A DNA stretch of 64,000 nucleotides from Clostridia bacterium (GTDB taxonomy: Bacteria; Bacillota; Clostridia; Christensenellales; UBA1242), in NCBI GenBank assembly GCA_045534555.1, contig JAZSJW010000002.1:15828-79827 (forward strand), given 5' to 3'. Position 1 is the first letter of the stretch. Each line of letters opens with the position of its first letter. Both the position numbers and the translations under genes were made by a program. Below are positions 14,001 through 35,743 of this stretch, one piece after another. The notes under the pieces are model-generated. The model saw only the letters and a list, made by a program, of their open reading frames with translations, was not told where the DNA came from and did no database searches.

Positions 14001-16051
14001 AATTTACTTGCAGGTTTTTCTTCATCTTTTTTAGGTTGCTCACCTGTTAATAAATTTTGAATTGTATCTGCTGCAGTTTTTGGTTTTTCTGGTGTTGAAA
14101 TAGTATCAACATTATCAATTTTAATTTCTGGATTTTTGACAATAATGTCTGCAGGAACAGTATTTGCAGGAATGTTTTTAATTTCAGGAGAAGGATTAAT
14201 TTGTTTAGCAACCCCAGTTACAACTGACGCAACTGCCATCTCTGGAGACACATCCCCTTTTTCTCCCTGTAGGTCAAGTATGTTTTGCTTGAAATATTCA
14301 TTTTCACTTACAACTTGCATTGCATTTTCAATATTAGGGTTTTTTGTTAACGCCTCTTCAATTTTTGCTTGCATTTGGTTATACACCACTGTAGGCATCT
14401 TTAATTCTCTTGTTTTGTTGCCATCTTTAACCACTATAGTAACGAAATCAGGCTCACTTCCTTTTTTATCTTCTGCTTCTTTGTTACTACCAACAATACT
14501 ATCTACAGTAACATCTTTAAATGTTGCTGGAGATTTTTCTTGAACAAATAATAAAGCTTTTTTTGCAACAACCCTTTTAATCTGTTCTTCTGTAAGACCT
14601 TTATTAGCAGTATTTGAACTTTTTAAAATGGTTAATGTTGTTTTGTTCACAAATTCCAATAAAGCCTCTCTTCTCTTCTGCATGCCTACTTTATTTCTTG
14701 GTTTTTCGGAAATTGTTTTATACATCTTCTTTAACTCTTCGTCAGAAAGCAAGTCATTAAACCATGTATTTACCGTAGTATCAAAACCATAGTCTACATA
14801 AGAAGAAGCAAGTTCTGTTGTTTTTGCAGAATCTGAATTTTTCGCAGGTGCTGGATCTACCAAACTATCACCTTTGTCCAATATTGGTTCCTCCTCTATA
14901 TCATTTTCAACAGATTCTACAGCAATTGGTGCTGGATTATCATTTGCTCTCACCTGAACTATAGGCTCTTTAGCTTGTTCATTTGCATTAGCTGGTACTG
15001 ATACTTCTAGGTCTTTTGTTTGTTCTCTTGCATCAACCTGTTCTCTTGCATCAGCTTGTTCTTGCATATTACTTAAATCAATCGATGCATCTAAAGCATT
15101 ACTTAAAGAAACCATGTCTTCATTTTCAATTGTTTTTAATGCTGATAAGTCATTACCAGGATAAGGATATTTTGTCATCTGTGCACCATCTAGAGACATT
15201 GCATTTTGGTTAACACTTAATCTTTCTTTCGCTGCTTTATATTCAGCTTTTATACCCTTTGCTTTTTCTTTTGCAGCTTTTCTTTCATCAAAAGCTTTTT
15301 TAACCCACTTATTTGCCTTTGAAAATATTGCCCCAATACCTTTAATTGCATATTTACCACCAACAAGCATGGTTAAAATTCCAGCAATACCAGCACCGCT
15401 AGTCAAACCAAAAGTTGACGTTACGGCAGAGGCAACAACACCCCAAACCGATAAACCAGCAAGACCTATTAAAGAAAGAGGCAACAAAGTTATCAATGGA
15501 TAAATAAGCATTCTTCTAGCAACCTTTCTACCCGCAGCCCTTTTTTCTGCCCTAGCACCTTTCACAGGCACTTCACCATCTTTTTTAGAGCCAAGCCACT
15601 CTTTCTTTTTTGCATTAAAATTTTCTTCTGATTCTTGATATTTTTTATTAGCAATTGCAAGATATTCAGCACGCTCTTCATCTACATCTTTTGGAACAGG
15701 AAAATGGCCTCTGTTTGCATAAGAACCTTTTCTTGCACCCAACTCAACTGCATGATTTGCTAATCTTTCAATCTCTGCATCATTAGAAACAACATCTCCA
15801 AGGTTAAAAAGATCAGGGTATGCCTTCAAAACCCTATTTAAACTTCTTAAGGTTACCTCGCCCCTTTCATTTTTCATTTCTTCTTCTATTCTTGGATTTT
15901 GGCTCACTAGCCTTTGATATCCTTCACCAGAAGCTCTCATGATTTGGTCTACAGCATTAACATATTTCCATAATTTATTATAATCCATAGCTGTTTGCAA
16001 ATACTTTTTACGAGGCGAATTTTCTTCTTGATTTTTAACTTCGTCTGCCAT
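11054..16051 (-). CDS. Giant (1665 aa) Glu/Lys-rich membrane-anchored protein of unknown function
   Basis: The ORF is uninterrupted over 5 kb, with GGAGG upstream of the ATG. Two hydrophobic helices lie around aa 190-250. The remainder is highly charged, with internal repeats, and I recognised no enzymatic motif. Confidence 0.8.
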   Translation of the reverse strand: MADEVKNQEENSPRKKYLQTAMDYNKLWKYVNAVDQIMRASGEGYQRLVSQNPRIEEEMKNERGEVTLRSLNRVLKAYPDLFNLGDVVSNDAEIERLANHAVELGARKGSYANRGHFPVPKDVDEERAEYLAIANKKYQESEENFNAKKKEWLGSKKDGEVPVKGARAEKRAAGRKVARRMLIYPLITLLPLSLIGLAGLSVWGVVASAVTSTFGLTSGAGIAGILTMLVGGKYAIKGIGAIFSKANKWVKKAFDERKAAKEKAKGIKAEYKAAKERLSVNQNAMSLDGAQMTKYPYPGNDLSALKTIENEDMVSLSNALDASIDLSNMQEQADAREQVDAREQTKDLEVSVPANANEQAKEPIVQVRANDNPAPIAVESVENDIEEEPILDKGDSLVDPAPAKNSDSAKTTELASSYVDYGFDTTVNTWFNDLLSDEELKKMYKTISEKPRNKVGMQKRREALLEFVNKTTLTILKSSNTANKGLTEEQIKRVVAKKALLFVQEKSPATFKDVTVDSIVGSNKEAEDKKGSEPDFVTIVVKDGNKTRELKMPTVVYNQMQAKIEEALTKNPNIENAMQVVSENEYFKQNILDLQGEKGDVSPEMAVASVVTGVAKQINPSPEIKNIPANTVPADIIVKNPEIKIDNVDTISTPEKPKTAADTIQNLLTGEQPKKDEEKPASKFVGAEFVGRKHVPVVVSTIPTANAGLQQFKAKKVVTIVGLDGKTGIRKVDAEEYAKLLASGVKIQESGSRFIVENGAKKQVTCIDSKRIEEIYKEKLRGKGKTGVKKQDKINSLKEAVDILAQENPNVNKAVIAEQVLTHAMEMAGSVYSYKVPITIQDLVPGLEVEKVAAANIGASKAPQFPKMPDFSIDAVTGAASRSFRGMAPQENKPKYTISKDSVAKVHRAPENAALVPNEFESIPDSEQVEEIMKDAENSGYEMEFGVGGSHEPLTPEQERAIEDAASKPTRKETTADGKTVFYFDGDIDREELKQKAKEIIKEKDTAEAFQAMADLGITAKEAEEIWGELGRAEDVEEASKQDNVGEINKPEEKEAKEPVEEALAHEESKDTEADKAAPAPSKVDLDKEVNSIVSQILQGKAVDLDDESLTARGLSLNDANAIRLTLSKITKDGKSYFDLNNELLAKKQERVDPNIDGKTEDTKVATPKTKVKVGKNLIALKDAMKLYNSASISDEEFDKINQVQINAIRAALKKANPTLSDDVIDTLVSDKLHEVNAMLDAELERDRDKAKAKEIEERKKHIAEVWAQGQKDRKKSAAENTATKEDAENKQPTEEPHKEVSKTATDSEIEQEIPDLPGFDISGLSRTAERGLNGGVSQEKPAYTISKDSVDKIAEANAPEVDPNKLSEQELKDYAKEIKAEEAAKNPAWYQFGLKRALKKEAKAQEEARIKEEQEDAARKAIEENNRIRIENASKILNTYLENHKDDVELVQKIREDEEYYISAIAENDFGIGLTLFDHSNSEVGKEILDNTMSLWASKVRNEKRIEEARTMAEVRAQQKDQEEIERRRKAQEESDNAILNASREFDDKFSKTKQSQNNAAQINKAYEDYKQQMGMSKDERSNGIRARIDRSKEVEFSAEEKDLIDFAIKNYSGMSSLQAHAQMKKLGLSDAAIQHVQNEFRNQRNAVKKQEENFEEQDGPDLD

Positions 16052-22018: not shown

Positions 22019-22645
22019 ATGCAAGAAAACAAGTTTATTTTTGATTGTTCTAAATGTCACAACCCTTGTGATGGTGTTAGTAAAGGAACTTATATATTTG
22101 AAAACGATACAGATTATTCTGAGCGCAAAGAAAATATGATTATTAATCAAATAAATACTCTTCCTGATTATAGGGCTGAAAAATGCACAAAAGATGGATA
22201 CCCAGACATATTAGTTCATCATATTCCAACCTCAAAAATTTTTTATATTGAAATTAAAGCACAAAGAAGAACCTTTATGGCAGTAAAAAAGAAATTACCA
22301 TATGCAGACTTGGAACCTTCTGAAACTGTAGCTTGTAATCTAAGCGATTTATTAAGATATATAAAAATCAGAAAAGAAACTCATGAAAAAATCTTTGTTT
22401 TGTGGTGTTTAGAAAATAGACCCTGTATTGTTGAGCCTGGAAAAACTAATTATTATTATCAAAATATAGATGAACTTGAAAAAATATATAATAAATATAA
22501 AGATAAAAGGAGATTTAGAAGAGAAAGCGGTTTTGGAGATGTGGTCAACGGTCAACACAAAGGTGTTGTCGTTAATTACCATTTTAGCCTTAACGAATTT
22601 AAAGAAATGCATCTTCTTGAGTTATTAAAAAGGGGAATAATCTAA
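22019..22645 (+). CDS. PD-(D/E)xK nuclease-fold protein with an N-terminal Cys cluster (accessory or second restriction subunit?)
   Basis: YPDILVHHIPTSKIFYIEIK gives D-x14-E-x-K. A CxxCxxxC cluster sits at the N-terminus. The stop overlaps the next ATG (ATGA at 22645). Confidence 0.5.
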   Translation: MQENKFIFDCSKCHNPCDGVSKGTYIFENDTDYSERKENMIINQINTLPDYRAEKCTKDGYPDILVHHIPTSKIFYIEIKAQRRTFMAVKKKLPYADLEPSETVACNLSDLLRYIKIRKETHEKIFVLWCLENRPCIVEPGKTNYYYQNIDELEKIYNKYKDKRRFRRESGFGDVVNGQHKGVVVNYHFSLNEFKEMHLLELLKRGII

Positions 22646-23499
22646 TGATTGATTCATATCAAAATTTTGCAGATAAATTAAATAATAAAATTAGAAATGG
22701 TGTCGACTTTTATAAAGAAATTCTTTCTACAATTATTAAAAATCCATATAGATATGCCGGTTTATATAGACTTTCAAATGCTAAAACAAAACTATTACAA
22801 AACATAACTCAAAGCCGAGAGATTAAATTTGGAGACTTCATGGAAGACATTATTACTGATTATTTAGCTCTTCGCGGTTTTTCTAATAAACCAAAAAATC
22901 TCGGCAAAAATATCGATGGAGACGAATTATCAGCAGATCAAATATGCGTAAAAAACAACATTTTATATTTTGTTGAGCAAAAAATTAGAGATGACCACGA
23001 TAGCACAAAAAAACGCGGGCAATTTGCTAATTTTGAAAAGAAAATTAAGCATCTCAAATCTCTATACCCACAATATAACTTAAAAGCATACATGTGGTTT
23101 ATTGATGATAGCTTACACAAAAACAAAAAATACTATGAACAGCAAATCGAACAAATTCAGTCTGTTTATACAGATGTTGAGATAGGCTGTTTATATGGAG
23201 ACGATTTGTTTATTAGCGTATTTAATGATGTCGACTTGTGGGAAGAAATAAAATCTTACTTATCTATATATAAATCGCAAAATGCAAATAATATTAATAT
23301 TCCAAATTTAGATACAGACAATACCGTACTTGATGCGATGAAAAAACTGTCTGCTAATGAACTAAAAAAAATTACCTCAAATAAAGATATTTATGTTCTA
23401 ATACGACAAGAACTATTCCCTACCGAACATAATTTTAGAAAATTAAAACAACATTTTACAAATATTGGTGATGCTAGGGCAAGCAAAATCAATATCTAA
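22645..23499 (+). CDS. Putative type II restriction endonuclease
   Basis: GDFMEDIITDYL followed by ADQICVKNNILYFVEQK (D-x12-E-x-K) resembles the catalytic layout of PD-(D/E)xK type II enzymes. The gene is directly upstream of the methyltransferase. Confidence 0.55.
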   Translation: MIDSYQNFADKLNNKIRNGVDFYKEILSTIIKNPYRYAGLYRLSNAKTKLLQNITQSREIKFGDFMEDIITDYLALRGFSNKPKNLGKNIDGDELSADQICVKNNILYFVEQKIRDDHDSTKKRGQFANFEKKIKHLKSLYPQYNLKAYMWFIDDSLHKNKKYYEQQIEQIQSVYTDVEIGCLYGDDLFISVFNDVDLWEEIKSYLSIYKSQNANNINIPNLDTDNTVLDAMKKLSANELKKITSNKDIYVLIRQELFPTEHNFRKLKQHFTNIGDARASKINI

Positions 23500-23512
23500 C
23501 TAGGAGAAATTA

Positions 23513-24583
23513 ATGGACTACATAAATAAAATTCTGCAAGGCGACTGTATTGAAATACTAAAACAATTACCAGATAATTCAATGGATTTAATCTTTGCAG
23601 ACCCACCATATAACATGCAACTTGAAGACGACCTTATAAGATATGAAGGAACCAAGTTTGACGGTGTTAATGATGACTGGGATAAATTCCCTACCCTTGA
23701 AGCATATGCAGATTTTTGCACACAATGGATATCTGAATGTAAGCGAGTACTTAAAAAGAATGGTTCTCTTTGGATTATTGGCTCCTTCCAAAATATATAT
23801 AAAATCGGAAGCATTTTACAAGATATGGGTTTTTGGATTATAAACGATATCGTTTGGGCTAAATCTAATCCCGTACCAAACTTTAGCGGCACAAGATTTA
23901 CTAACGCACACGAAACTCTCTTATGGGTTGTAAAAGATAAAAAATCAAAACCAACATTTAATTATAAAACCATGAAAGATTATAATGGTGGAAAACAAAT
24001 GAAATCTGTGTGGGAAATTCCTCTTTGCACAGGAAATGAACGAATTAAGGATAAGGACGGCCACAAAGTTCACTCAACTCAAAAACCTGAAGAAATACTA
24101 AAAAGAGTAATTTTATCCACTAGTAAAGAAGGAGACATTGTGCTAGATCCATTTTTTGGAACAGGTACTACTGGGGCTGTTGCTAAAAAATATAATCGAA
24201 ATTTTGTTGGTATTGAAATGGATAAATCTTATTGTGAAGTTGCTGAACAAAGAATTAACAATATCAAAATTGAAGATTTGTCATATTTTAGAAAGCTAGA
24301 AGAAAAACCTGCAAAAGTAACCCATAAAAATTTGTTAGAAAAAAATATGATTTCAATTAATGAGACTTTATATTCTCCAGACGGAAAAATACAGGCAACA
24401 TGGAAAGAAGATAGCTACGTTGATCTAGAAAACGAACACCTAAGTATACATATTGCAGCAGCTAAATGTCTAAATAGAACTAATTATAATGGTTGGACAT
24501 ACTGGCACATAATAAGAGACGGAAAGTTAATTTTAATAGACAATTTACGAGCAGACTACAGAAAAAAATTTTGTAATAAGTAG
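23513..24583 (+). CDS. Beta-class N6-adenine DNA methyltransferase, CcrM/M.HinfI-like
   Basis: Motif IV IFADPPYN precedes motif I DPFFGTGTTG, which is the beta order. From memory, the protein is colinear with CcrM-type blocks (GFWIINDIVWAKSNPVPNF, IPLCTGNERIK, HSTQKPEE) and with the C-terminal NGWTYWH domain. Confidence 0.85.
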   Translation: MDYINKILQGDCIEILKQLPDNSMDLIFADPPYNMQLEDDLIRYEGTKFDGVNDDWDKFPTLEAYADFCTQWISECKRVLKKNGSLWIIGSFQNIYKIGSILQDMGFWIINDIVWAKSNPVPNFSGTRFTNAHETLLWVVKDKKSKPTFNYKTMKDYNGGKQMKSVWEIPLCTGNERIKDKDGHKVHSTQKPEEILKRVILSTSKEGDIVLDPFFGTGTTGAVAKKYNRNFVGIEMDKSYCEVAEQRINNIKIEDLSYFRKLEEKPAKVTHKNLLEKNMISINETLYSPDGKIQATWKEDSYVDLENEHLSIHIAAAKCLNRTNYNGWTYWHIIRDGKLILIDNLRADYRKKFCNK

Positions 24584-25557: not shown

Positions 25558-25935
25558 CTACAGAAATTTTTTAAATCCGGTATATCTATTTGCAGTCGTA
25601 TATCTTTTCTCAACTTGTTCGCCGCCATTGTTTATAACTGCGCAATATCTCGCATATTTAAAAACTTCGCTATTAACAAGTATCATAATATCTGAAATCA
25701 CGCAGCAAAACATTAACACGTGCCACACTCCGTTATCGTCAACATACATATCTTTTTTATATTTGATTACATTGGGATCATCTTCAAGCAAATGACTTCT
25801 GAAATGAATAAACTCTAATTTTGGAAGATATATCGTCCTTTCAACAATATATTGAACTTCTTTACCTTTGTTTTTATCGGTTTTGTTTCTAATTAACTTT
25901 GGATCAGGTATTTTATAAAAGAAGCTTGCTTTCAT
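25558..25935 (-). CDS. Hypothetical protein; it resembles a family I recall from Firmicutes mobile elements (..SE..YARY.A.. motif)
   Basis: The motif NSEVFKYARYCAV is present. The start overlaps the upstream gene by 4 nt (ATGA). Confidence 0.55.
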   Translation of the reverse strand: MKASFFYKIPDPKLIRNKTDKNKGKEVQYIVERTIYLPKLEFIHFRSHLLEDDPNVIKYKKDMYVDDNGVWHVLMFCCVISDIMILVNSEVFKYARYCAVINNGGEQVEKRYTTANRYTGFKKFL

Positions 25936-26174
25936 AATTTTATCTCCTTGATTAACTCAATCGCAAAATCAAGCAACTGATCAGTTTCAATATCATGTAA
26001 ACTACTGACTTCCAAAGATAAATCAAAATATTCCTTCCATTTTTCTTTGCTAAATTCTTTAGTAAATTTATCTTCCATTTCAACAATCTTTGTTAACTGC
26101 AATTGATATTCTGCATTCATTTTTTGTTCTTGAAATCGCTCTTTGATTATTTGAATTATAGTTAGATTTTTCAT
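25932..26174 (-). CDS. Hypothetical small helical acidic protein (80 aa)
   Basis: The ATG at 26174 follows GGAGGGAG. This is the first gene of the four-gene operon. Confidence 0.55.
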   Translation of the reverse strand: MKNLTIIQIIKERFQEQKMNAEYQLQLTKIVEMEDKFTKEFSKEKWKEYFDLSLEVSSLHDIETDQLLDFAIELIKEIKL

Positions 26175-26236
26175 ACTCCCTCCATATCGCTTGACACTAT
26201 AAATCAAAAACCAACAAAAGCCAAGACAATTTCAAA

Positions 26237-26258
26237 ATTATATCATCACAATGATATA
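26237..26258 (-). promoter_or_regulatory. Extended -10 promoter overlapped by a perfect 8-4-8 inverted repeat (candidate operator)
   Basis: The reverse strand has TGaTATAAT (-10 at 26242..26237). The inverted repeat TATATCAT-caca-ATGATATA spans 26239..26258. Confidence 0.5.
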
Positions 26259-26284
26259 GTTTTTGTTTTTTAATGGATATAACA

Positions 26285-26334
26285 GCGCCCTCCTAAGCGA
26301 TAGGTCGGAGGTATAAGACACTACGGGAACACCA
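26285..26334 (+). pseudogene. Degenerate 3' fragment of a tRNA-Arg(CCU)-type gene, inverted relative to the other copies
   Basis: CCTCCTAAGCGATAGGTCGGA (26289..26309) is identical to the intact tRNA at 37209..37285 over 21 nt. The T-arm that follows is decayed, and the fragment ends ...CGGGAACACCA. Confidence 0.6.
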
Positions 26335-26386
26335 AATAAAAATTTTTATAAATTTTCTGAAATTATCAACAATTTTGAAATATATA

Positions 26387-26395
26387 TGCTATAAT
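26387..26395 (+). promoter_or_regulatory. Extended -10 element upstream of hsdM
   Basis: TGcTATAAT lies at 26387..26395, 24 nt before the ATG, and the RBS AAGGAG follows. Confidence 0.5.
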
Positions 26396-26418
26396 TAATT
26401 TATTATAAGGAGTAAAGT

Positions 26419-27918
26419 ATGGCAGAAAGTAATATTGGATTTGAAGAAAAAATATGGAAAGCAGCATGTGTGCTTCGTGGAAATATGGATGCAAGCGAAT
26501 ACAAACATGTTGTTTTAGGTTTAATCTTTTTAAAATATTTAAGCGATAGCTTTGAAACAAGATATAAAGAACTTGTTGCTGAAGGCGAAGGATTTGAAGA
26601 AGATGTAGATGAATACACAAGAAAAGGAATTTTCTTCGTCCCAGAAAATGCAAGATGGAGTTATATCTCAAAATATGCACATGAGCCTATTATTGGAAAA
26701 GTTATTGATGAAGCAATGCAATCTATTGAAAAGTCTAATCACAGATTAGATGGTATTTTGCCAGATAACCATTTTGGAAGACCAGAGCTTGATAAAAGAA
26801 GGCTTGGAGAAGTTGTTGATTTGTTTACAAATATTTCAATGATAGATAGAAGTAAGGATTTACTAGGTAGAGTTTATGAGTATTGTTTATCAAAATTTGC
26901 TGAACAAGAAGGTAAGCTTGCTGGCGAATTCTATACTCCAAGTTGTATTGTTAAATTACTTGTTGAAATATTAAAACCTTTTAATGGAAGAATTTATGAT
27001 CCTTGCTGTGGTTCTGGTGGAATGTTTGTTCAAAGTGTAAAATTTATTGAAAACCATCAAGGAAGAATTAAAGATATTTCTGTATATGGACAAGATGCAA
27101 ACCCAACAACAAGAAAACTTTGTGCAATGAACTTGGCTATTCGTGGTATTGAGGCAGATCTTGGCAAATATGCAGACGACACATTCTTTAATGATTTACA
27201 TCCTCAATTAAAAGCAGACTATATTTTAGCAAACCCTCCATTCAACCTTTCTGCTTGGGGCGGAGATAAACTTGTTAATGATAAAAGATGGGTTTATGGT
27301 GTGCCACCAACAGGAAATGCAAACTTTGCTTGGCTTCAACATATGATTCACCATCTTTCTCCAAATGGAAAGATTGGTATGGTTCTTGCTAATGGTGCTC
27401 TTTCATCAAACACTGGTAACGAAGGAGAAATAAGAGCCAATATAATTAAAGCAGATTTGGTTGAAGCTATTGTTGCATTACCTGCTCAATTATTCTATAC
27501 AACAGGAATCCCTGTTACTCTATGGTTCTTAAACAAAAATAAAAAACAAAAAGGCAAAATTCTTTTCATAGATGCTCGTGAAATGGGAACTATGGAAACC
27601 AGAAAACTTAGAGTGTTAACTGACGATGAGAACGGTGACATTCAAAAAATAGCATCTACATTTAATGCGTTTGAAAATAATGATAATTATCAAGATATTA
27701 AAGGATATTGCAGAGTTGCAACATTAGAAGATGTAGAAAAAGAAGGATTTATTTTAACTCCAGGTAGATATGTTGGTGTTGCTGAAATTAAGCAAGACTC
27801 TGAACCATTTGAAACAAAGATGCCAAGATTAAAACAAGAGCTTTATGCAATGTTTGAACAAAATCATAAACTAGAAGAAAATATAAAAGCACAATTGGAG
27901 AAATTAAGTGGAAAATAA
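26419..27918 (+). CDS. hsdM: Type I restriction-modification system, methyltransferase subunit HsdM
   Basis: The HsdM N-terminal domain (EEKIWKAACVLRG, LGLIFLKYLSD), the AdoMet motif DPCCGSGGMF and the catalytic NPPF are all present. Confidence 0.95.
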   Translation: MAESNIGFEEKIWKAACVLRGNMDASEYKHVVLGLIFLKYLSDSFETRYKELVAEGEGFEEDVDEYTRKGIFFVPENARWSYISKYAHEPIIGKVIDEAMQSIEKSNHRLDGILPDNHFGRPELDKRRLGEVVDLFTNISMIDRSKDLLGRVYEYCLSKFAEQEGKLAGEFYTPSCIVKLLVEILKPFNGRIYDPCCGSGGMFVQSVKFIENHQGRIKDISVYGQDANPTTRKLCAMNLAIRGIEADLGKYADDTFFNDLHPQLKADYILANPPFNLSAWGGDKLVNDKRWVYGVPPTGNANFAWLQHMIHHLSPNGKIGMVLANGALSSNTGNEGEIRANIIKADLVEAIVALPAQLFYTTGIPVTLWFLNKNKKQKGKILFIDAREMGTMETRKLRVLTDDENGDIQKIASTFNAFENNDNYQDIKGYCRVATLEDVEKEGFILTPGRYVGVAEIKQDSEPFETKMPRLKQELYAMFEQNHKLEENIKAQLEKLSGK

Positions 27919-28801
27919 ATCAAATCCAGTATATGAACTAAGATTAGAGTTAGAAGCAATCAATGAAAAGCTAAATGTGTTTTGGGAATTTTATCAATAT
28001 TTAACATCTGCAGATTTAATTACTAAAAGATATTACAATGACTTGTTTCAAGAATTTTCTGCTGGCAATTTTCTCAATGCTAAAACTTGCCTTACAAAAA
28101 TTATCGAAAGATTACAAAAAGAATCTGAATATTCTTCACACATGTATGTAAAAGATATGTTTGTTTCTGCAATATCAATCTTAGAGGAAGCTAGTAGTCT
28201 ATGTGATAAAGCTTTAGATTTGATTGAGAATTCTGCATATCAAGGGATGAATGAAAAACAAATAATAAAAGCAAAGAAAAAAGATCTTGATTTGCAGTTG
28301 GCAGAAAAACAAGAAAAACAAGCGCCTTATCTCAATTTGAGCCTATCTATAGTATTTATTTTAATGTCTGTTACATTTGTTTTTGTTCCTCACTATTTTA
28401 ACAATTCTACTCTTCTTTATCACATTTGTGGATTTATGTTTTTCTTTGGATTTCTTTTTGCAAAACAAGAAATTGAACTAAGAAATAAAGTTGGATTTGT
28501 AACCCAGTCTGAAAAGCTTACTACTAAACGAGCATTTATTTCTTTGGTACAAGCTGTATTATACATGATACCCTTAGCAATATTATCTATTTTCTTTTAC
28601 GAGTTATTGTCTATCAGAATTTTATTATTTGTTCAAATATGGTTTTGTGCAGTACTTCTCATTAATGGCATTTTGATTTTAACTGTCCATTCATATACAA
28701 ACAAGAAAATGGAAAAGTTTAGCATCTGGGGATTTATTCTTGGTGCAATTTCAATTATTGGATTTGTAATTCAAATTTTACAATTGTTTGATGTTTTATA
28801 A
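27908..28801 (+). CDS. Hypothetical protein with an N-terminal helical domain of about 145 aa and five C-terminal TM helices, embedded in the type I R-M operon
   Basis: The GTG start at 27908 follows GGAG at 9 nt and overlaps the end of hsdM by 11 nt. No internal Met occurs before aa 78. The TM segments were read from the sequence. Confidence 0.65.
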   Translation: MENKSNPVYELRLELEAINEKLNVFWEFYQYLTSADLITKRYYNDLFQEFSAGNFLNAKTCLTKIIERLQKESEYSSHMYVKDMFVSAISILEEASSLCDKALDLIENSAYQGMNEKQIIKAKKKDLDLQLAEKQEKQAPYLNLSLSIVFILMSVTFVFVPHYFNNSTLLYHICGFMFFFGFLFAKQEIELRNKVGFVTQSEKLTTKRAFISLVQAVLYMIPLAILSIFFYELLSIRILLFVQIWFCAVLLINGILILTVHSYTNKKMEKFSIWGFILGAISIIGFVIQILQLFDVL

Positions 28802-28816
28802 TGCAAAGGAGAAAAT

Positions 28817-29851
28817 ATGGATAAAAATTATTCATTAATAATTGATACAAATGTTTTTGATTTACAAAAAGAGTTAGATGATTTTTCTGAGCCCTATTTA
28901 TTTTTCAAAATTGAAGAACTTGTTAATAAATTTGAAATTAATGATATTATTAGTAAAATAAACGTCTGTATTCCTAAAGTTGTATTAATGGAATTTGCTA
29001 AGCAACAAGATGAAAGATATGAAGATGAAATGAAAAAATTTCTAGGTAAAACATATCCATTATTCACTCCTCAAAAAAGAGAAAATTATATGTCCTGGTT
29101 AAATAAAAAATTTATAAAGTATCTAAAAGAAAATAATAATTTTGGAAACTGTGTATTTATTTTGGATTACCCTTCAGGTAAAAGCTTCAAAAATATTATT
29201 AATAGAGCAATTTTAAAACAAGAACCATTTGAGGGGAAAAATGGCAAAAGCGACAAAGGATTTAAAGATGCATTAATTTGGCAAACCTTATTGGAATATA
29301 AAACTTCGAATCCAACAACAAAAATTATATTATTTTCTAATGATTCAAAATTAACAAGCGAATATTGTCAAAAAGAATATAAACTTTTATTTAATGATGA
29401 CCTTATTATTGCTAAAAATGTTAAAGAACCATACCTTGATGAAGTGATTAAAAAGGAATTTAATTTAGATAAAATTGAACTATCTTTAGAAAACAAGTTG
29501 AAAAATAAACTTTTAGAAAAATTGGAAAACAATTTAGAATTTACAAATTTGATTGGTAAGTTTATTTTTTCTAAAATGGGAGAAAAAGAAGAAATATGCG
29601 AAGTTTTAGATCCGAATTTTAGAATTTCTAACATGGGAGGAGAAGAAGATTTACCTGCTTTTTATGTATGGATTTCTGTACGAGTAGGTGTAAAACATAA
29701 AGATGATGTAATTTTTGAAGAACTTCAATCAGGAATAGAAATTTCATATAATTTTGAAAAAGAAAAATTTATGATAGAAGCAAGCTTCCCAATCCATTCT
29801 GACTTTACAGATGAACAATATTACAATTTGATTAAATTTATAGAAGAATAA
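28817..29851 (+). CDS. PIN-like (DUF4935-type) predicted nuclease, embedded in the type I R-M operon
   Basis: The N-terminal LIIDTNVFD, plus later acidic positions (..VLMEF.., ..GFKDALIW.., ..FSNDSKL..), match the PIN acidic quartet pattern. The RBS is a strong AAGGAG. Confidence 0.6.
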   Translation: MDKNYSLIIDTNVFDLQKELDDFSEPYLFFKIEELVNKFEINDIISKINVCIPKVVLMEFAKQQDERYEDEMKKFLGKTYPLFTPQKRENYMSWLNKKFIKYLKENNNFGNCVFILDYPSGKSFKNIINRAILKQEPFEGKNGKSDKGFKDALIWQTLLEYKTSNPTTKIILFSNDSKLTSEYCQKEYKLLFNDDLIIAKNVKEPYLDEVIKKEFNLDKIELSLENKLKNKLLEKLENNLEFTNLIGKFIFSKMGEKEEICEVLDPNFRISNMGGEEDLPAFYVWISVRVGVKHKDDVIFEELQSGIEISYNFEKEKFMIEASFPIHSDFTDEQYYNLIKFIEE

Positions 29852-29867
29852 TTATTTGGAGAAATAA

Positions 29868-31037
29868 ATGAGTAATTGGAAACATATAGAACTCGGTGGT
29901 TTAATAAATTTTAGAAGAGGTTTTGACCTTCCAAAAACAGATATGATCTCTGGCCAATATCCAGTTGTTGCATCTAATGGAATTATTGGTTATCATAATC
30001 AATATACAACTAAAGCGCCTGTGATAACAATTGGAAGAAGTGGAAATGTTGGCACACCTTATTTTTACAATGAAAATTGTTGGGCTCATAATACAACCTT
30101 GGTTATAGATGCGTTTTATGATTGTGACCCTAAATTTATATATTATATACTAAAAACTTTAAATTTGCAAAATTATAGAGGTGGAAGTGCTGTCCCTACT
30201 CTAAATAGAAATCATATACATCCAATAAAGGTTTATGTGCCAGAATTAAAGGAGGAACAGCAAGCTATTGCAGATGTGTTAAGCTCTTTTGATGACAAGA
30301 TTGTATTAAATAATAAAATTATTAAAAATCTTGAAGAACAAGCGCAAAGTTTATATAAGCACTGGTTTGTTGATTTTGAATTCCCAAATGAAGAAGGTAA
30401 ACCATACAAATCAAGTGGGTGCAAATTTAAAGAATCTGAATTAGGTTTAATACCAGAAAAATGGGAATTGTCAAGTATTGATGATTTTGTTCAAATTAAT
30501 AAAAGAGGTATTAGTCCATTATATTCAGAGAATCATGATACCCCTGTTATAAATCAAAAGTGTATAAGAGATTCATTAATTGATATTAATGAGATTACTT
30601 TTAATGACGATTCAAAAAGTTATAGTTCAGAAATTGAGTTGAAATTTATGGATACTTTAGTAAACTCTATGGGGGTTGGGACTTTAGGTAGAATTTCACC
30701 TTATATATTAAATATAAAAGCAGTGCCTCATAGTTGTGTAACGTTAATAAGAAATGAAAATTATCCATGTTTTACATATTTAACAATTAAATCTTTGGAA
30801 GAAAGAATAACACAAATGGGAACTGGAACTACTGGGCAGACTTCATTAAATAATAAATCTTTAGGCGCATTGAAGATCTTGGTTCCAGATAAATTGATAT
30901 TAAAAAAGATAGAAGACACAATAATAATTCATTACAAAGAACTTGCTCAGCTATTATTAGAAAATAAAAAACTAGAAGAAACAAGAGATTATTTATTACA
31001 AAAGTTAATGAAAGGAGAAATAAAAGTTGGAAACTAA
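29868..31037 (+). CDS. hsdS: Type I restriction-modification system, specificity subunit HsdS
   Basis: Two target-recognition halves are separated by the conserved helices LEEQAQSLYKHWFVDFEFP and LEETRDYLLQKLM. Confidence 0.9.
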   Translation: MSNWKHIELGGLINFRRGFDLPKTDMISGQYPVVASNGIIGYHNQYTTKAPVITIGRSGNVGTPYFYNENCWAHNTTLVIDAFYDCDPKFIYYILKTLNLQNYRGGSAVPTLNRNHIHPIKVYVPELKEEQQAIADVLSSFDDKIVLNNKIIKNLEEQAQSLYKHWFVDFEFPNEEGKPYKSSGCKFKESELGLIPEKWELSSIDDFVQINKRGISPLYSENHDTPVINQKCIRDSLIDINEITFNDDSKSYSSEIELKFMDTLVNSMGVGTLGRISPYILNIKAVPHSCVTLIRNENYPCFTYLTIKSLEERITQMGTGTTGQTSLNNKSLGALKILVPDKLILKKIEDTIIIHYKELAQLLLENKKLEETRDYLLQKLMKGEIKVGN

Positions 31038-31668
31038 AGAAACTTTTTTACAAATGTGCTATCATTGTGGAAATGAGGGTCTTTTATATGTGAAATCTAA
31101 ATTTATAGACAAATATAATGATTATGAAAAGAATACTCCTATATATTGGTATGAGGATCAATATTCTTTATTAAAATGTCCTGTTTGTGGGAATGTTACA
31201 TGTATAAAGAGATCTACGGAAGAGGGTATGAGAAGTTTTCAGGGAAAACAGGAATATGATTTGTTTGTATTGTATCCAAATGTTAGCTGTGAATATAATG
31301 ATGTGCCAAATGAAATAAAATCATCTTTTGAAGCGGCAAAAAAAGTTGAAAAAATAGACAGCTCAATTTGTGCTTTATCATTAAGAAGAGTTTTAGAATT
31401 AATATGTATTGATAAACAAGCATTAGGAGACAATCTTGAGAAGAAGATAAAGGATTTAGTAAATAAAAATATATTACCATCAACCTTCGATGCTGCATGT
31501 AAGCATATTAGGATTATAGGAAATGAAGGTGCTCACGAAAATCAACTTTCAATTCCAGCAAGAGAATTAAAAACACTTATAGAATATTTGGAAAGTATCA
31601 TAAACTATTTATATGTATTACCAGAAAAGATTAAAAGGTTAACTAATATAAAAACAGGAAATGCTTAA
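31027..31668 (+). CDS. Zn-ribbon plus DUF4145-like protein, embedded between hsdS and hsdR
   Basis: The TTG start follows AAAGGAG and overlaps the end of hsdS by 11 nt. The pair CYHCGN...CPVCGN is present. The C-terminal half (LSLRRVLELICIDK...IRIIGNEGAHE) resembles the DUF4145 pattern often linked to type I R-M loci. Confidence 0.6.
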   Translation: METKETFLQMCYHCGNEGLLYVKSKFIDKYNDYEKNTPIYWYEDQYSLLKCPVCGNVTCIKRSTEEGMRSFQGKQEYDLFVLYPNVSCEYNDVPNEIKSSFEAAKKVEKIDSSICALSLRRVLELICIDKQALGDNLEKKIKDLVNKNILPSTFDAACKHIRIIGNEGAHENQLSIPARELKTLIEYLESIINYLYVLPEKIKRLTNIKTGNA

Positions 31669-31688
31669 GATAGATAAGGAGAAAACAA

Positions 31689-34600
31689 ATGAGTATAACA
31701 TTTAATGAAGAAAGTTTTGAACAAGCATTAATTGAACTATTTCAAAGAAATTTGAAATATGATTTTTGCTGTGGTTATGATATTGAAAGAGATTATACTG
31801 AGCCTTTACTTTTAGATAATGTTTTTTCTGCTTTAACAAAAATTAATAAAGGTTTGCCTAGAGTTGCAATTGAAGAAGCTATTAAAAAGATTAAATCGAT
31901 TAAAGGTAAAGATTTAGTTTCAAATAATGAACATTTTATGAATTATCTTCAAAATGGTGTTGAAGTTAAATTTTCTGATAATGGAAAAATTAAAACTGAT
32001 ATTGTTAACCTAGTTGATTACTCCGCTCAAGGAGTTGTTAATAATGAGTTCTTAATTGTTAATCAATACTCAATGCTTCAAAACGATATTACTAAACGCC
32101 CTGATATTATTGTTTTCTTAAACGGATTTCCTATTGTTGTTATTGAACTTAAAAGTTGTAGCAGAGAACAAACAGATAGTTCTCATGCTTTTAGACAAAT
32201 TAAAAATTATCAACACGATATTTCTAATTTATTTACATATAACTGCTTCAACATTGTTTCAGATATGACAAACTCAAAGCTTGGAACAATCACTGCTGAT
32301 GAAGATAGGTATATGGAATGGAAAAGCAAATCTGGTGATTATGAAGAAACCAAGTACTCTAACTTTACCACATTGTTTGAAGGTGTTTTTGCAAAAGATA
32401 GATTATTAAATATTATTAAAAACTTTATGCTATTTAGCAAAGGTGACAAAAAGATAAAAATTGTTTCTGCTTATCATCAATATTTTGCTGTTAATAAAGC
32501 AGTTGAAAGAACTTTGCAGGCTGTTGAAGATAATGGAAAAGCTGGTGTTGTTTGGCATACTCAAGGAAGTGGAAAAAGTTGCTCAATGGTGTTTTATTCT
32601 CACCTGCTTGATCACTATGCCGATAATCCAACAATTGTAGTATTGACAGACAGAAACGATCTTGATGGTCAGCTATATGAAACATTTAGTAAGTGTAAAG
32701 ACTTTTTAAGACAAACGCCTGTTCAAGCAGATTCCAGAGCTGGTCTTAAAAAGCTATTAAAAGACCGTGTTGCTGGTGGAATTATTTTCACAACAATGCA
32801 AAAATTTGCAGAAAGTGATGATGCATTAAGTGATAGAAAAAATATTATTGTAATGGCTGATGAGGCTCATAGAAGTCAATATGGTTTAAATGAAAAAATT
32901 GATCAGAAGACCGGAAAAATAAATGTAGGCTATGCAAGAATGGTTAGAAATAGCTTACCAAATGCTACTTTTATTGGCTTTACAGGAACACCAATTGATA
33001 CAAAAGATAAATCAACTCAAGAAATATTTGGTTCTTATATAGATATTTATGACATTACTCAAGCAGTAATGGATAAAGCAACAAAACCAATTTATTATGA
33101 AAGTCGTGTTGTTAAATTATCTTTAGACGATAAAGTTTTAAAACAAATTGATGAAGCCTATGCAGAAATGGCTCCTAATGCTGAAGAATATCAGATTGAA
33201 AAGAGCAAAAAAGATTTAGCAAAGCTCGAAGAGATATTATCTACAGAAAAAACTATTTCTACGCTTGTTAAAGACATTGTTACACACTATTCAGATAACA
33301 GAAGTCAAATATTATCTGGTAAAGCAATGATAGTTGCATATTCTAGACCAATTGCTATAAAGATTTGGCAAGAGATAATGGCTAAATATCCACAAATGAA
33401 AGGTAAAGTTAAAGTTGTTATGACAAGTGACAATAACGATCCTGAATCGTGGAGAAAAGTTGATGGAGTTAATCAAAACAAGAAAGACTTAGAAAAAGAA
33501 TTTAAAGACGATGAAAGCAACTTTAAGATTGCGATAGTTGTTGATATGTGGCTTACTGGTTTTGACCTTCCATCACTACACACAATGTATGTGTTTAAAC
33601 CAATGAAAGATCATAACTTGATGCAAGCAATTGCAAGAGTTAATAGAGTTTTCAAAGACAAAGAAGGCGGACTTATTGTTGACTATATTGGAATTGCACA
33701 AGCATTGAAAAAAGCAATGAAACAATATACAGTAAGAGACCAAAAGAATTTTGCTGAAAATGATATTTCTAAAAAAGCACTACCATTATTTCAAGAAAAA
33801 CTTTCAATATGTAGAGACTTTATGTATGGTTTTGATTACTCAAAATTTATTAAAGGAACAAATCTTGATCGTGCTAATTTAATTGTAGGTGGAATTAATC
33901 ACATATTACGAGATGAAGAAGATAAAAAAGTCTTCTTGAAAGAATCTCTAGCTTTACATCAAGCTGAAAGTTTGTGTATGAGTTTGATTGATTATGAGAC
34001 AAGACTTGAGGCGGCTTTTATGGAAAGTGTAAGAGTTGCTATTACGAGAATAAATCAAAGCAGAAAACTGAGTTTAAAAGAAATTAATGAAAGAATTTCC
34101 GAATTGTTGAGACATACAATTAAAACAAGTGAAGTTATAGATATTTTTGCGGATGCAAAGCTAGAATTCTCAATCTTTGATGATAAATATCTTGCAAGCT
34201 TACAAAGAATGAAAGAAAAAAATGTTGCAGTTGAAATACTTGCAAGACTTCTTAATGATGAATTAAAGTTGTTTGAAAGAACAAACCTTGTTCAAAGTGA
34301 ATTGTTTAGTGAAAAAATTCGAAGAATTATGCTTGCATACAACAATGGGCAAATTAATAATATTGAAGTTCTTGATGAGCTTATAAAACTTGCTCAGGAA
34401 ATTAAAGAAGTAGAAGATGCAGGTCAAAAACTAGGATTAAATAAAGAAGAAAAAGCTTTCTACGATGCACTGCTTAAACCTCAAGCATTGAAAGATTATT
34501 ATGAAGATAAAAATGAAGATCTTATTGCAATAGTTAGAGAGTTAACAGATATGTTAAACAAAAACAAAACTATTGACTGGCAAAAAAGAGAAACAGCAAG

Positions 34601-34721
34601 AGCGGATATGAGAAGTTTAGTTAAAAGACTTCTTAAGAAATATAACTACCCACCTAGAGAAAGAGATGAAGCTTTACAATATGTAATGGCTCAATGTGAA
34701 AGATGGGCAGATAATATTTAG
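31689..34721 (+). CDS. hsdR: Type I restriction endonuclease, subunit HsdR
   Basis: The N-terminal PD-(D/E)xK motif (RPDIIVFLNGFPIVVIELK) is present. Helicase motifs are GSGKS, DEAH (MADEAHRSQ), TGTP and QAIARVNR. Confidence 0.95.
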   Translation: MSITFNEESFEQALIELFQRNLKYDFCCGYDIERDYTEPLLLDNVFSALTKINKGLPRVAIEEAIKKIKSIKGKDLVSNNEHFMNYLQNGVEVKFSDNGKIKTDIVNLVDYSAQGVVNNEFLIVNQYSMLQNDITKRPDIIVFLNGFPIVVIELKSCSREQTDSSHAFRQIKNYQHDISNLFTYNCFNIVSDMTNSKLGTITADEDRYMEWKSKSGDYEETKYSNFTTLFEGVFAKDRLLNIIKNFMLFSKGDKKIKIVSAYHQYFAVNKAVERTLQAVEDNGKAGVVWHTQGSGKSCSMVFYSHLLDHYADNPTIVVLTDRNDLDGQLYETFSKCKDFLRQTPVQADSRAGLKKLLKDRVAGGIIFTTMQKFAESDDALSDRKNIIVMADEAHRSQYGLNEKIDQKTGKINVGYARMVRNSLPNATFIGFTGTPIDTKDKSTQEIFGSYIDIYDITQAVMDKATKPIYYESRVVKLSLDDKVLKQIDEAYAEMAPNAEEYQIEKSKKDLAKLEEILSTEKTISTLVKDIVTHYSDNRSQILSGKAMIVAYSRPIAIKIWQEIMAKYPQMKGKVKVVMTSDNNDPESWRKVDGVNQNKKDLEKEFKDDESNFKIAIVVDMWLTGFDLPSLHTMYVFKPMKDHNLMQAIARVNRVFKDKEGGLIVDYIGIAQALKKAMKQYTVRDQKNFAENDISKKALPLFQEKLSICRDFMYGFDYSKFIKGTNLDRANLIVGGINHILRDEEDKKVFLKESLALHQAESLCMSLIDYETRLEAAFMESVRVAITRINQSRKLSLKEINERISELLRHTIKTSEVIDIFADAKLEFSIFDDKYLASLQRMKEKNVAVEILARLLNDELKLFERTNLVQSELFSEKIRRIMLAYNNGQINNIEVLDELIKLAQEIKEVEDAGQKLGLNKEEKAFYDALLKPQALKDYYEDKNEDLIAIVRELTDMLNKNKTIDWQKRETARADMRSLVKRLLKKYNYPPRERDEALQYVMAQCERWADNI

Positions 34722-34729
34722 TTGTTAAA

Positions 34730-34756
34730 GAACAGATAAATTATCTGTTCTTTTTT
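34730..34756 (+). terminator. Rho-independent terminator after hsdR
   Basis: The hairpin GAACAGATA-aat-TATCTGTTC is followed by TTTTTT. Confidence 0.8.
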
Positions 34757-35035
34757 AGTGTAACCTGTAAAATTATAATTTTTCTGTTAGCGGAAATTTT
34801 TGCGTTATCTTATAAATATAAGACAAAAAAATTTAGAGTAATAGTGTAATTATCTGACGCTATTACACTAATGACACTAATTATTTATCACACGCGAGCG
34901 CGTATGTGAAACCCCTTAATTAAATAATTTAATATATCACTAATATATTTCAAATTCGCGTTATTCTATAATATATATAACAAAATAATAATCCGTCATT
35001 CTGTCATATCCGTCATAAATGACGGTAGTGACAGT

Positions 35036-35680
35036 ATGAAAGGCTATAAAAAAGAAGTCAAAATACTAAATGATAAAGAAGCTAAGATACTAGCCAACTA
35101 CTTACACACAGAACCAAACCCTAGATGGAAGATTGCATTGCTTACAGTACTATTTATGGGTTTAAGGCGTGGAGAACTTGCAGGACTAGAATGGAAGGAT
35201 ATAGATTTTGAGAATAAAACAATGAAGATTGCTCGTTCTGTACAAGAAGTAAATGGATTTGGAATTATTACTAAAGAGCCAAAGACTGAAACATCTAAAA
35301 GAGTTATTTATATCCCTGAAAGATTAATTGGTTACTTATTAGAATATAAAACCTTTTGGGATAATAGGAAGAAATATCTTGGCGATAGATGGTCAAAAAC
35401 TGATAGACTATTTTGCACAGATGATGGTGATGATATCAGTCCTGGATTGTTTATTGTATGGCTACATAAAATTTTAGACCGTGCAGGCTTGCCACGAGTA
35501 ACTCTACACTCACTTCGCCACACAAATATAACATTGCAATTGGCTAACGGTGTTGATATGAAAACAGTATCGGTAAGAGCTGGCCATTCAAAAGCCTCAA
35601 CAACTTCCGACTTCTATTCGCATTTCTTAAAAACACCAGATCAACACGCCAGCGCCACAATTGATAAAATTTTTGAGTAA
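35036..35680 (+). pseudogene. Tyrosine recombinase/integrase with the catalytic domain only (N-terminal ~150 aa missing)
   Basis: The catalytic residues are in context: GLRRGEL (Arg), HSLRHT (His-x-x-Arg), AGHS and FYSHF (Tyr). At 214 aa it is much shorter than the ~350-400 aa typical size. No ORF lies upstream and no SD precedes the ATG. Confidence 0.7.
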
Positions 35681-35743
35681 ATTTTATAATATCTTGTAAA
35701 AATGACAGCTTTATGATAAACTTATGAAATATAAGGAGATATT

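Follow-up and report, generated by a model that had tools for sequence, protein, structure and literature searches.

Three accessory genes embedded in a predicted type I restriction–modification operon of a Clostridia bacterium

The DNA analyzed here is a 64,000-nt window of contig JAZSJW010000002.1 (assembly GCA_045534555.1, Clostridia bacterium), and all coordinates are positions in this window as a whole. Six co-directional genes within it encode the three subunits of a type I restriction–modification (R-M) enzyme, HsdM, HsdS, and HsdR, together with three proteins that are not R-M subunits: a membrane protein with transmembrane (TM) helices, a predicted nuclease of the PIN_12 family, and a zinc-ribbon protein with a DUF4145 domain related to the RNase RAZR. 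In the reading that we consider probable, these genes form one unit extending from a promoter to a terminator (~26366–34760), in which the R-M enzyme is combined with three separate accessory defence genes at two docking points, one between hsdM and hsdS (slot A) and the other between hsdS and hsdR (slot B). Comparison with related loci (designated by L numbers, and single proteins by P numbers, where they have to be told apart) showed that near-identical hsdM/hsdR backbones exist with and without the three genes. This bore out an earlier proposal, made from the letters and open reading frames (ORFs) of this DNA (the sequence-only reading), that these genes are insertions.

Gene content and boundaries of the operon

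All six ORFs of the sequence-only reading were reproduced from the ORF list (Table 1), with spacings of -11, +15, +16, -11, and +20 nt between successive genes. Its GTG start at 27908 and TTG start at 31027 were also found, with products beginning with MENK (TM protein) and METK (DUF4145 gene), and its gene labels agreed with the domain calls of Pfam and PADLOC.

Table 1. Features of the operon, its junctions, and its surroundings, in window coordinates
Feature	Position	Strand	Description
hsdM	26419..27918	+	Methyltransferase subunit, 499 aa, ATG; Pfam N6_Mtase (PF02384) 4e-109, HsdM_N (PF12161) 4.5e-28
TM protein gene	27908..28801	+	Membrane protein, rare family, 297 aa, GTG; variable helical N-domain (~1-135), conserved five-helix TM C-domain
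PIN_12 gene	28817..29851	+	Predicted nuclease, PIN_12 (PF16289, formerly DUF4935), 344 aa, ATG; N-terminal PIN domain, variable C-terminal beta-rich domain
hsdS	29868..31037	+	Specificity subunit, 389 aa, two target-recognition domains, ATG; Pfam Methylase_S (PF01420), two stretches, 3.5e-30
RAZR-like gene	31027..31668	+	RAZR/PD-T7-4 family, 213 aa, TTG; Cys4 zinc ribbon, DUF4145 (divergent HEPN) RNase domain
hsdR	31689..34721	+	Restriction/translocase subunit, 1010 aa, ATG; Pfam HSDR_N, SWI2_SNF2/ResIII, T1R_D3-like, T1RH-like_C
hsdM/TM junction	27894..27918	+	Shine-Dalgarno GGAG within hsdM codons L-E-K-L; GTG 27908; 11-nt overlap with hsdM stop
hsdS/RAZR-like junction	31011..31037	+	Shine-Dalgarno GGAG within conserved HsdS codons G-E-I-K-V; TTG 31027; 11-nt overlap
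Candidate sigma-70 promoter	26366..26395	+	TCAACA, 18-nt spacer, extended -10 TGcTATAAT (26387-26395); best promoter-like site of the region
Intrinsic terminator	34727..34760	+	Perfect 12-bp hairpin 34727-34753 and U-run; -12.5 kcal/mol, z = -3.9
Type II restriction endonuclease (REase)	22645-23499		PADLOC REase_II 1e-45
CcrM-like N6/N4 methyltransferase	23513-24583		C-terminal RAMA domain; pairs with the REase as type II R-M (22645-24583)
Truncated tyrosine integrase	35036-35680		Catalytic half only
DUF3800 protein, PDC-M04 A	35744-36475		PADLOC 1e-69
162-aa protein, PDC-M04 B	36459-36947		GTG start, 17-nt overlap; PADLOC 4e-25

HsdM (PADLOC MTase_I, 6e-198) combined an N6-adenine methyltransferase with the HsdM N-terminal domain, and the NPPF and S-adenosylmethionine-binding (DPCCGSGG) motifs were seen in its translation. 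HsdS (PADLOC Specificity_I, 4e-93 over residues 2–387) contained two target-recognition domains (TRDs) and the conserved central and C-terminal regions, including a C-terminal G-E-I-K-V common to its relatives. HsdR (PADLOC REase_I, 5e-291) comprised an N-terminal nuclease, an SF2 translocase ATPase, and a C-terminal assembly domain, with GSGKS and DEAH motifs in the translation; its nearest solved structure was EcoR124I HsdR (5e-30). With intact motifs in all subunits, the operon is predicted to encode a complete type I R-M enzyme.

The nuclease gene matched PIN_12 over residues 7–178 (6e-18; 66.2 bits against a cut-off of 32). Among 12 aligned sequences, the acidic residues D10, E59, D146, and D151 were invariant, and D176 of an SND motif, the fourth acidic position, was present in 10, so that the conserved acidic metal-binding residues of the PIN fold are in place. 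Residues 200–344 were very variable in the same alignment of 12 homologues. An AF2 model (pLDDT 79, pTM 0.72) showed an alpha/beta PIN core and a beta-rich C-domain. A VapBC-type toxin–antitoxin pair was considered and rejected: the upstream gene encodes the 297-aa membrane protein, or is hsdM in most loci, no antitoxin gene was found, and no small ORF lies between the PIN gene and its upstream gene.

The fifth ORF matched DUF4145 (PF13643, 8e-16) and PADLOC PD-T7-4 (5.5e-14 over residues 11–203). It also matched PDB entry 9y9c (2.4e-7, 33.7 bits), mostly in the HEPN half, where RIIGNEGAH was aligned to RIVGNQAVH; we took this entry, which has 24 chains and was named 'DUF4145 domain-containing protein' by its depositors, to be RAZR. 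RAZR, the ring-activated zinc-finger RNase of E. coli, is composed of a zinc finger and a divergent HEPN domain, with R146 and H154 being essential, and forms a 24-mer around phage rings (portal, putative recombinase) before cleaving RNA, which results in abortive infection (PMC13017515). The cleavage of single-stranded RNA is nonspecific, as known for the E. coli protein only (PMC13017515). The Arg and His corresponding to R146 and H154 were conserved in the DUF4145 domain of the window protein, and its zinc ribbon was complete (C11-x2-C14 and C51-x2-C54; CYHC...CPVC), without aligning significantly to 9y9c. The two proteins thus share a Cys4 zinc ribbon, a linker, and a DUF4145/HEPN domain with an aligned R-x7-H, and are similar in length (213 aa here versus 219 aa). 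The similarity is nevertheless distant, the zinc finger that sets the phage specificity of RAZR was not alignable by phmmer, and the window gene overlaps hsdS and starts with TTG, whereas for the E. coli gene a frequent overlap with an integrase gene is described. On these matches, we assign the fifth ORF to the RAZR (PD-T7-4) family. DUF4145 domains fused to zinc ribbons, and their presence in R-M operons, were catalogued in 2013 (PMC3710099; PMC3632139). The protein also matched the phage family phrog_1305, 'DNA binding protein' (5e-26), so that relatives are also phage-borne.

The membrane protein had no match in Pfam, PADLOC, NCBIfam, or PHROGs. Its family is rare: 5.8 billion proteins contained 16 clusters, a profile search of 1.84 billion representatives yielded only 10 relatives, and none was retrieved when JGI metagenomes were scanned with the TM alignment. 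The AF2 model (pLDDT 80) was all-helical, with five N-terminal and five TM helices. The TM half was strongly conserved and kept a set of invariant polar residues, among them N143, H172, E188, R192, R208, R237, Q243, and N265-K266-K267, and the first 135 residues occurred in at least two unrelated versions on one TM body: among P0006–P0009, the N-domains were 18–24% identical versus 90–93% for the C-domains.

The boundaries of the unit were consistent with a single operon. The promoter element that the sequence-only reading had noted at 26387 was present (TGCTATAAT, 26387–26395), and the motif TATGyTATAAT was invariant in five related loci (the window, L008, L064, L004, and L001), of which L001 keeps the -10 element although its upstream DNA is otherwise unrelated to that of the window. 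A promoter scan had no statistical power in this AT-rich DNA (66 sites versus 53 +/- 8 expected). The terminator, likewise claimed to be single, was the only terminator-like site on the + strand within 25900–35100; its hairpin begins 6 nt past the hsdR stop, and none of 200 shuffled sequences folded as well. Homology to L008 ran from 26273 to 34757, stopping exactly at the terminator, and since homology to L008/L004 ends at 34756/34757, the terminator represents the edge of the conserved unit. Six co-directional genes with overlaps or short spacers, each start being preceded by GGAG(A/T)AA, are the features of a coupled polycistronic operon. From the conserved -10 element, the lack of internal terminators, and the end of homology at the terminator, all of which fit this arrangement, we infer a single transcript. 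Rfam and ARAGORN found no RNA element inside the operon, and their sole match was a tRNA-Arg at 37209–37285. Upstream of the promoter, a hairpin-capable CCTCC...GGAGG is located at 26285–26316; the left part of this DNA is common to L008, L064, and L004, and the hairpin is not conserved because its right arm, GGAGG, occurs in the window only.

Variation among related loci

HsdM and HsdR were 96–99% identical among the window, L001, L004, L008, and L064, and the identities of the middle genes of the same loci ranged over 57–94% (TM protein), 24–98% (PIN_12), and 39–96% (HsdS). L004 and L008 share TM proteins at 94% and HsdS at 96% identity, whereas their PIN_12 proteins are only 30% identical. 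Breakpoints in the DNA alignment with L004 fell at the edges of the PIN ORF (28853–29856 in the window), and those with L008 marked the TM N-domain (27920–28302) and TRD2 of hsdS (~30500–30959), TRD1 being common to both. The TM N-domain types and PIN types assorted independently (A+1, B+1, B+2, A'+3).

The RAZR-like and TM genes were missing or degraded in some close relatives: the DUF4145 gene is absent in L008 and L004, the TM gene is absent in L064, and L007 carries a deleted remnant. Compared with L008, the RAZR-like insert is bounded at 31029–31674, in place of which L008 has 12 nt; the Shine–Dalgarno (SD) sequence plus start of hsdR, GGAGAAAACAAATG, is identical in L004 and L008. The 203-nt hsdS–hsdR gap of L007 (12226–12430) is an internally deleted RAZR-like gene that keeps the first ~50 nt and the last ~170 nt, with coding pieces for the N-terminal ...TCYHCGN and the C-terminal AHENQISIPARELKTLIEYL....

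The six-gene order recurred in two more lineages (L001–L003 and L096), and hsdM-TM-PIN_12-hsdS-hsdR without the RAZR-like gene was found in L004–L008 and L095. Orders without a TM gene were hsdM-PIN_12-hsdS-Peptidase_M78-hsdR (L009 and L010), hsdM-(insertion sequence)-PIN_12-hsdS-hsdR (L011, Selenomonas), hsdM-PIN_12-hsdS-hsdR (L098, Vulcanibacillus), and hsdM-hsdS-PIN_12-(182-aa ORF)-hsdR (L097, E. faecalis). Slot B was empty in L004 and L008, held a RAZR-like gene in the window, L001, and L096, its remnant in L007, a Peptidase_M78 gene in L009, and a Bflower gene in L064. The backbones of L064 and L009/L010 are close to that of the window. The Bflower gene (10610–10972 of L064, where HsdM is 98% identical) encodes a 4-fold beta-flower protein (PF21784, 1e-34), and the Peptidase_M78 (ImmA/IrrE-type) gene, at 11296–11937 of L009 and present in the same slot of L010, overlaps hsdS by 23 nt. 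In L039 (HsdM 70% identical), DUF4145 and PIN_12 genes lie next to each other in slot B (12908–14623), showing the two families together in another arrangement.

A scan of the genome collection with HsdM gave 80 loci at 65–98% identity in many phyla. In 41 genome loci, the fetched stretch covered hsdM as well as hsdR. An extra ORF of at least 100 aa lay between the two genes in 39 of these, embedding thus being the rule in this R-M family, and 34 carried something besides a shufflon integrase or half-hsdS; these counts come from crude ORF labelling, and a few extra ORFs may be unrecognised hsdS genes. The genes embedded in these sister loci include Fic/DOC, Abi_C, YhcG nuclease, FRG, Bflower, DUF2971, AAA_15, DUF4238, CAP12-type TIR, DUF3800, PIN_12, and DUF4145. 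From these comparisons, the three inserts of the window appear to have separate, independent evolutionary histories.

The history of PIN_12 bears on the main alternative to our reading. We scanned JGI metagenomes with the PIN alignment and analyzed the loci of the 80 best relatives of the window PIN_12 using simple ORF/BLAST labelling. The hsd genes adjoined PIN_12 in 77 of the 80 loci; among the 23 loci whose flanks extended over 3.5 kb or more upstream and 5 kb or more downstream, 22 had such neighbours. The dominant order was hsdM-PIN_12-hsdS-(inverted hsdS copies)-hsdR, and neither a TM nor a DUF4145 gene was found in any of the 80. The PIN start overlapped the hsdM stop by 4–26 nt, with an SD-like GGAGG/GGGGG lying within the conserved C-terminal codons of HsdM (L-G-x-I-G-Y); because many PIN_12 loci show it, this overlap design is general for the hsdM-side slot, normally with ATG. 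In five loci (L131, L150, L155, L157, and L169), a second PIN_12 gene lay directly before hsdR in addition to the one that overlaps the hsdM stop, and invertible hsdS copies separated the two. A tblastn search of a plasmid collection found no PIN relative and four distant DUF4145 matches, which were uninformative on context.

Such constancy suggests a guard of the PrrC kind, in which PIN_12, and possibly other inserts, would be held inactive on the HsdM/HsdS core until an anti-restriction protein (of the Ocr, ArdA, or Stp kind) disabled the R-M enzyme, whereupon PIN_12 would cut RNA and abort the infection. We regard this possibility as unlikely, although it is the strongest competitor of our reading. 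It has a precedent in PrrC, which resides inside the EcoprrI hsdMSR locus (PMC3710099) and is almost exclusively R-M-embedded, and it would account for the near-obligate linkage described above. The fixed place right after hsdM with a start/stop overlap suggests stoichiometric co-production, and no antitoxin-like gene accompanies the PIN gene. However, PIN_12 proteins only 24–32% identical occur within backbones of 96–99% identity, and the PIN ORF is swapped alone; this divergence is hard to square with a specific co-evolved interface, unless it is the conserved core of the PIN protein that makes the contact. Moreover, PIN_12 genes occupy either slot or both (L039, L087, L097, and the five double-PIN loci), and PIN_12 has no ATPase or sensor module like the ABC domain of PrrC. 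Homology to PrrC is also lacking. PrrC combines an ABC ATPase with HEPN, whereas PIN_12 combines PIN with a beta-rich domain and has no NTPase; what PIN_12 has in common with PrrC and RloC is a latent RNase gene inside a type I R-M locus, a possible functional analogy. Membership in the PrrC-type anticodon nucleases was rejected for both the PIN and TM proteins, neither of which contains an ATPase or HEPN domain, so that the comparison is one of analogy only.

The TM gene showed a different distribution. Every R-M-embedded TM gene directly precedes PIN_12 with a gap of 10–16 nt (the window, L001–L008, and L094–L096), as would be expected if the two proteins formed a two-component system in which a membrane sensor, anchor, or killing pore works with a nuclease partner. 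This is improbable, since PIN_12 occurs without the TM gene in L009–L011, L064, L097, L098, and all 80 metagenome loci, a TM homologue occurs without PIN_12 or R-M genes in L092 and L093, and the types of the two assort independently; the adjacency is simply explained by insertion of the TM gene into a pre-existing hsdM/PIN junction. As an obligate pair, TM plus PIN was rejected on the same grounds of separate occurrence and independent assortment. The homologue outside R-M loci is the most divergent one (P0016, 48% identity; L092 176–1287 and L093 89–1200); its gene has its own SD and ATG, follows a 60-aa ORF with two TM helices, and adjoins an oppositely oriented Abi_2 gene. L092 contains two copies of a sequence encoding ...SL(N/S)LRHLQPKTNPKVCFRF (1362–1493 and 3569–3703), which suggests that the segment is flanked by a repeat.

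Junctions and start codons

The sequence-only reading had further proposed that the two accessory genes overlapping their upstream neighbours, those for the TM and RAZR-like proteins, were inserted or are maintained with a common coupling junction. The two quoted junction strings, ttGGAGAAATTAAGTGGAAAATAAA and GGAGAAATAAAAGTTGGAAACTAAA, were both found in the sequence. They align over ~23 nt with one 2-nt indel, and both belong to genes with 11-nt overlaps, non-ATG starts, and products beginning with ME(N/T)K. Among 45 SD-preceded genes of the window, only three have non-ATG starts, and two of the three are these overlapped accessory genes. A cassette-like attachment or coupling motif that brought in both genes, or keeps them, could explain these similarities.

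Several observations argued against such a motif. GGAG(A/T)AA was found 6–9 nt upstream of all six operon starts, in five of them as GGAGAAA, and for this reason the first third of the "shared" junction is the organism's SD. The string GGAGAAAT is read in different frames in the two upstream genes, as ttG GAG AAA TTA (L-E-K-L) in hsdM and as GGA GAA ATA (G-E-I) in hsdS, where it forms part of the family-wide G-E-I-K-V. This C-terminus is also encoded by hsdS genes without a downstream insert, in L004 as GGAGAGATTAAGGTT and in L008 as GGAGAAATTAAAGTT, and GGAGA(A/G)AT(T/A)AA(A/G)GTT is found in hsdS of L004, L008, and L007, none of which has an intact insert downstream. As a background test, we compared the start contexts (-16..+15) of the 45 SD-preceded genes and scored all 990 pairs. 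The TM/DUF4145 pair ranked 8 of 990 (top 0.8%), and four unrelated pairs scored above it, one of them being the TM junction with the start of the methyltransferase gene at 23513. The resemblance between the junctions is real, yet it is within the range given by an SD with A-rich early codons and not beyond chance, the conserved C-terminal codons of HsdS being a further source of it. Other cargo at the same hsdS end differs in sequence (the Peptidase_M78 gene overlaps by 23 nt and starts with ATG), the sequences at which PIN_12 genes join hsdM are quite unlike these junctions, and the separate histories of the three accessory genes likewise count against one common junction.

Each junction taken by itself, in contrast, was maintained in orthologous loci. 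At least eight loci kept the one between hsdM and the TM gene, near-identically in L001, L004, and L008 and as a recognisable variant with a 14-nt overlap in L007. L094–L096 carry ATG at the position of the GTG, one base change turning the HsdM end ...LSGK into ...LNG(E)NK, and this comparison confirms the TM start site; TM orthologues with ATG have overlaps of 14–17 nt, which is a further point against a motif common to both genes. The hsdS/DUF4145 junction with its TTG was kept in the window, L001, and L096, even though the proteins are only ~70% identical. An in-frame ATG at codon 10 of the window gene was not conserved, L001 and L096 reading LQTCYHCG there. Overall, the comparative loci largely refute the common-junction idea, which we consider most improbable. 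Non-ATG starts in two overlapped genes are expected, because the start codon is carved out of upstream coding sequence, and the GTG and TTG plausibly keep the expression of the accessory genes low.

Proposed function and relation to known systems

In the reading that we favour, that of an R-M enzyme with three separate accessory defence genes, the PIN_12 nuclease of slot A would long have accompanied this R-M family almost constantly. The TM gene would have entered the hsdM/PIN junction later, in a small clade, where it now overlaps hsdM in place of the PIN gene, which has an SD of its own. Slot B would accept several alternative genes, among them the one for the RAZR-like RNase. The R-M enzyme would serve as a first line by cutting unmethylated incoming DNA, and the co-expressed embedded proteins may act as a second line, as effectors of the abortive-infection type against phages escaping restriction. 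To judge from its homology, the RAZR-like RNase would become active on assembling around ring-shaped phage proteins such as portals. The C-terminal domain of PIN_12 is fast-evolving, and the membrane protein has a swappable, predicted cytoplasmic N-domain on a conserved 5-TM body. The overlapping accessory genes would be translated by coupling, using SD-like sequences that pre-existed in the last hsdM and hsdS codons, and coupling with weak GTG/TTG starts would limit the amounts of potentially toxic proteins and link them to the expression of the R-M genes. The near-invariant hsdM and hsdR would act as homology arms between which the middle (TM N-domain, PIN, hsdS TRDs, and slot B cargo) is exchanged between strains.

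Several points weigh against this reading. The PIN_12 and TM proteins have no characterised homologue and no PADLOC 2.0 match, and a defence role is proposed for them from their context. Neither AF2 model gave a usable fold result: the TM model had no significant fold match in PDB, and Foldseek returned only matches of low TM-score for PIN_12. Our PIN_12 survey covers a subfamily of closest relatives rather than the whole of PF16289, which was mostly monocistronic in a 2017 survey (PMC5499597), and the near-obligate R-M linkage fits an R-M-dependent PIN_12 at least as well as an autonomous module. Internal promoters, moreover, are possible in the AT-rich DNA of the operon.

The accessory proteins might instead serve the R-M enzyme, as a membrane anchor at the site of DNA entry or as a modulator of restriction or its alleviation. 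The tight co-expression design and the constant linkage of PIN_12 with this R-M family would agree with such a role, and the conserved TM body with its invariant polar residues suggests a defined membrane function. Close and apparently complete R-M loci exist without the TM and RAZR-like genes, however, and therefore the enzyme does not need them. In addition, RAZR provides autonomous defence in E. coli (PMC13017515), the same slots hold abortive-infection and toxin domains (Fic, Abi_C, TIR, AAA_15) in sister loci, and the fast divergence of PIN_12 and the TM N-domain is typical of conflict genes. We thus consider a service role decidedly improbable.

Defence genes embedded in type I R-M loci have been described previously. 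DarTG2 lies between hsdS and hsdR in enteropathogenic E. coli (PMC12255303), TgvAB is embedded in VPI-2 of Vibrio cholerae (PMC11411939), the rlo genes of Campylobacter are likewise embedded, and a 'guilt-by-embedding' survey reported thousands of embedded genes (bioRxiv 10.1101/2024.01.29.577857). As in the PrrC, DarTG2, TgvAB, and rlo operons, the non-R-M genes of the window are co-directional, located between hsd genes, and probably co-transcribed; the hsdS–hsdR gap is a cargo slot whose content varies among close relatives, and the logic of layered defence is similar. In contrast to these operons, the window fills two slots at once with three unrelated single-gene modules, the two proteins of its slot A, PIN_12 and the TM protein, belong to none of the embedded systems characterised so far and have no PADLOC 2.0 match, and PIN_12 is nearly fixed, not sporadic, in this R-M lineage. 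Matelska et al. (2017, PMC5499597) classified the PIN_12/DUF4935 family as VapC-like PIN proteins whose function is unknown and whose C-terminal region could not be assigned, and called it 'usually mono-cistronic'. The window protein resembles that description in its N-terminal VapC-like PIN, acidic residues, poorly conserved alpha/beta C-terminal region, and length of ~350 aa, and departs from it in that its subfamily is almost always inside type I R-M loci, overlapping the hsdM stop. The R-M enzyme and the RAZR-like gene are thus new members of known families, and the principle of embedding is known; undescribed in the literature searched are the almost exclusive type I R-M residence of the PIN_12 subfamily, the rare TM family with exchangeable N-domains, and the triple occupancy.

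The operon is located in a defence island next to tRNA-Arg(CCT) (37209–37285, minus strand), which marks the island edge together with a truncated integrase. The island also contains the type II R-M pair, which lies a short way upstream of the operon, and an unannotatable 208-aa ORF (22019–22645) abuts the REase gene on its upstream side. PDC-M04 (35744–36947), a candidate two-gene system of PADLOC, contains another overlapped gene with a non-ATG start in the same island. Both L004 and L064 are homologous to the window at 35458–35681 (the integrase end) and 37170–37487 (the tRNA side), and their cargo between hsdR and the tRNA differs from that of the window, e.g., ApeA-HEPN in L004.

Type I R-M operons already serve as "bait" for defence-gene discovery. 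The present locus contributes PIN_12 and the TM protein to this approach, two candidates that are uncharacterised and whose comparative signals are unusually clean. Knowing that the similarity between the junctions is no special motif saves follow-up effort. The near-identical hsdM/hsdR arms with their mosaic middle illustrate the shuffling of defence cargo between strains, and the conserved TM body with exchangeable N-domains suggests a modular sensor–effector. The RAZR-like gene is a natural, Gram-positive-type, R-M-embedded relative of RAZR, and bears on the generality of ring-templated activation. PIN_12, almost never found outside type I R-M loci in our survey, might provide the PrrC principle with a second example that is structurally unrelated to the first. 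A bolder proposal, which we advance tentatively and hold to be rather unlikely in its joint form, is that type I R-M enzymes of a widespread lineage, found largely in the gut, have the PIN_12 subfamily as a dedicated fourth component, which would depend on or guard the HsdM/HsdS core as PrrC does but with an unrelated fold, and that the narrow-clade 5-TM protein is an infection-triggered effector whose cytoplasmic N-domain is swapped so that it senses something else. If this were true, one R-M enzyme would have a three-layer back-up linked to it, consisting of the PIN nuclease, the membrane effector, and the RAZR-like RNase.

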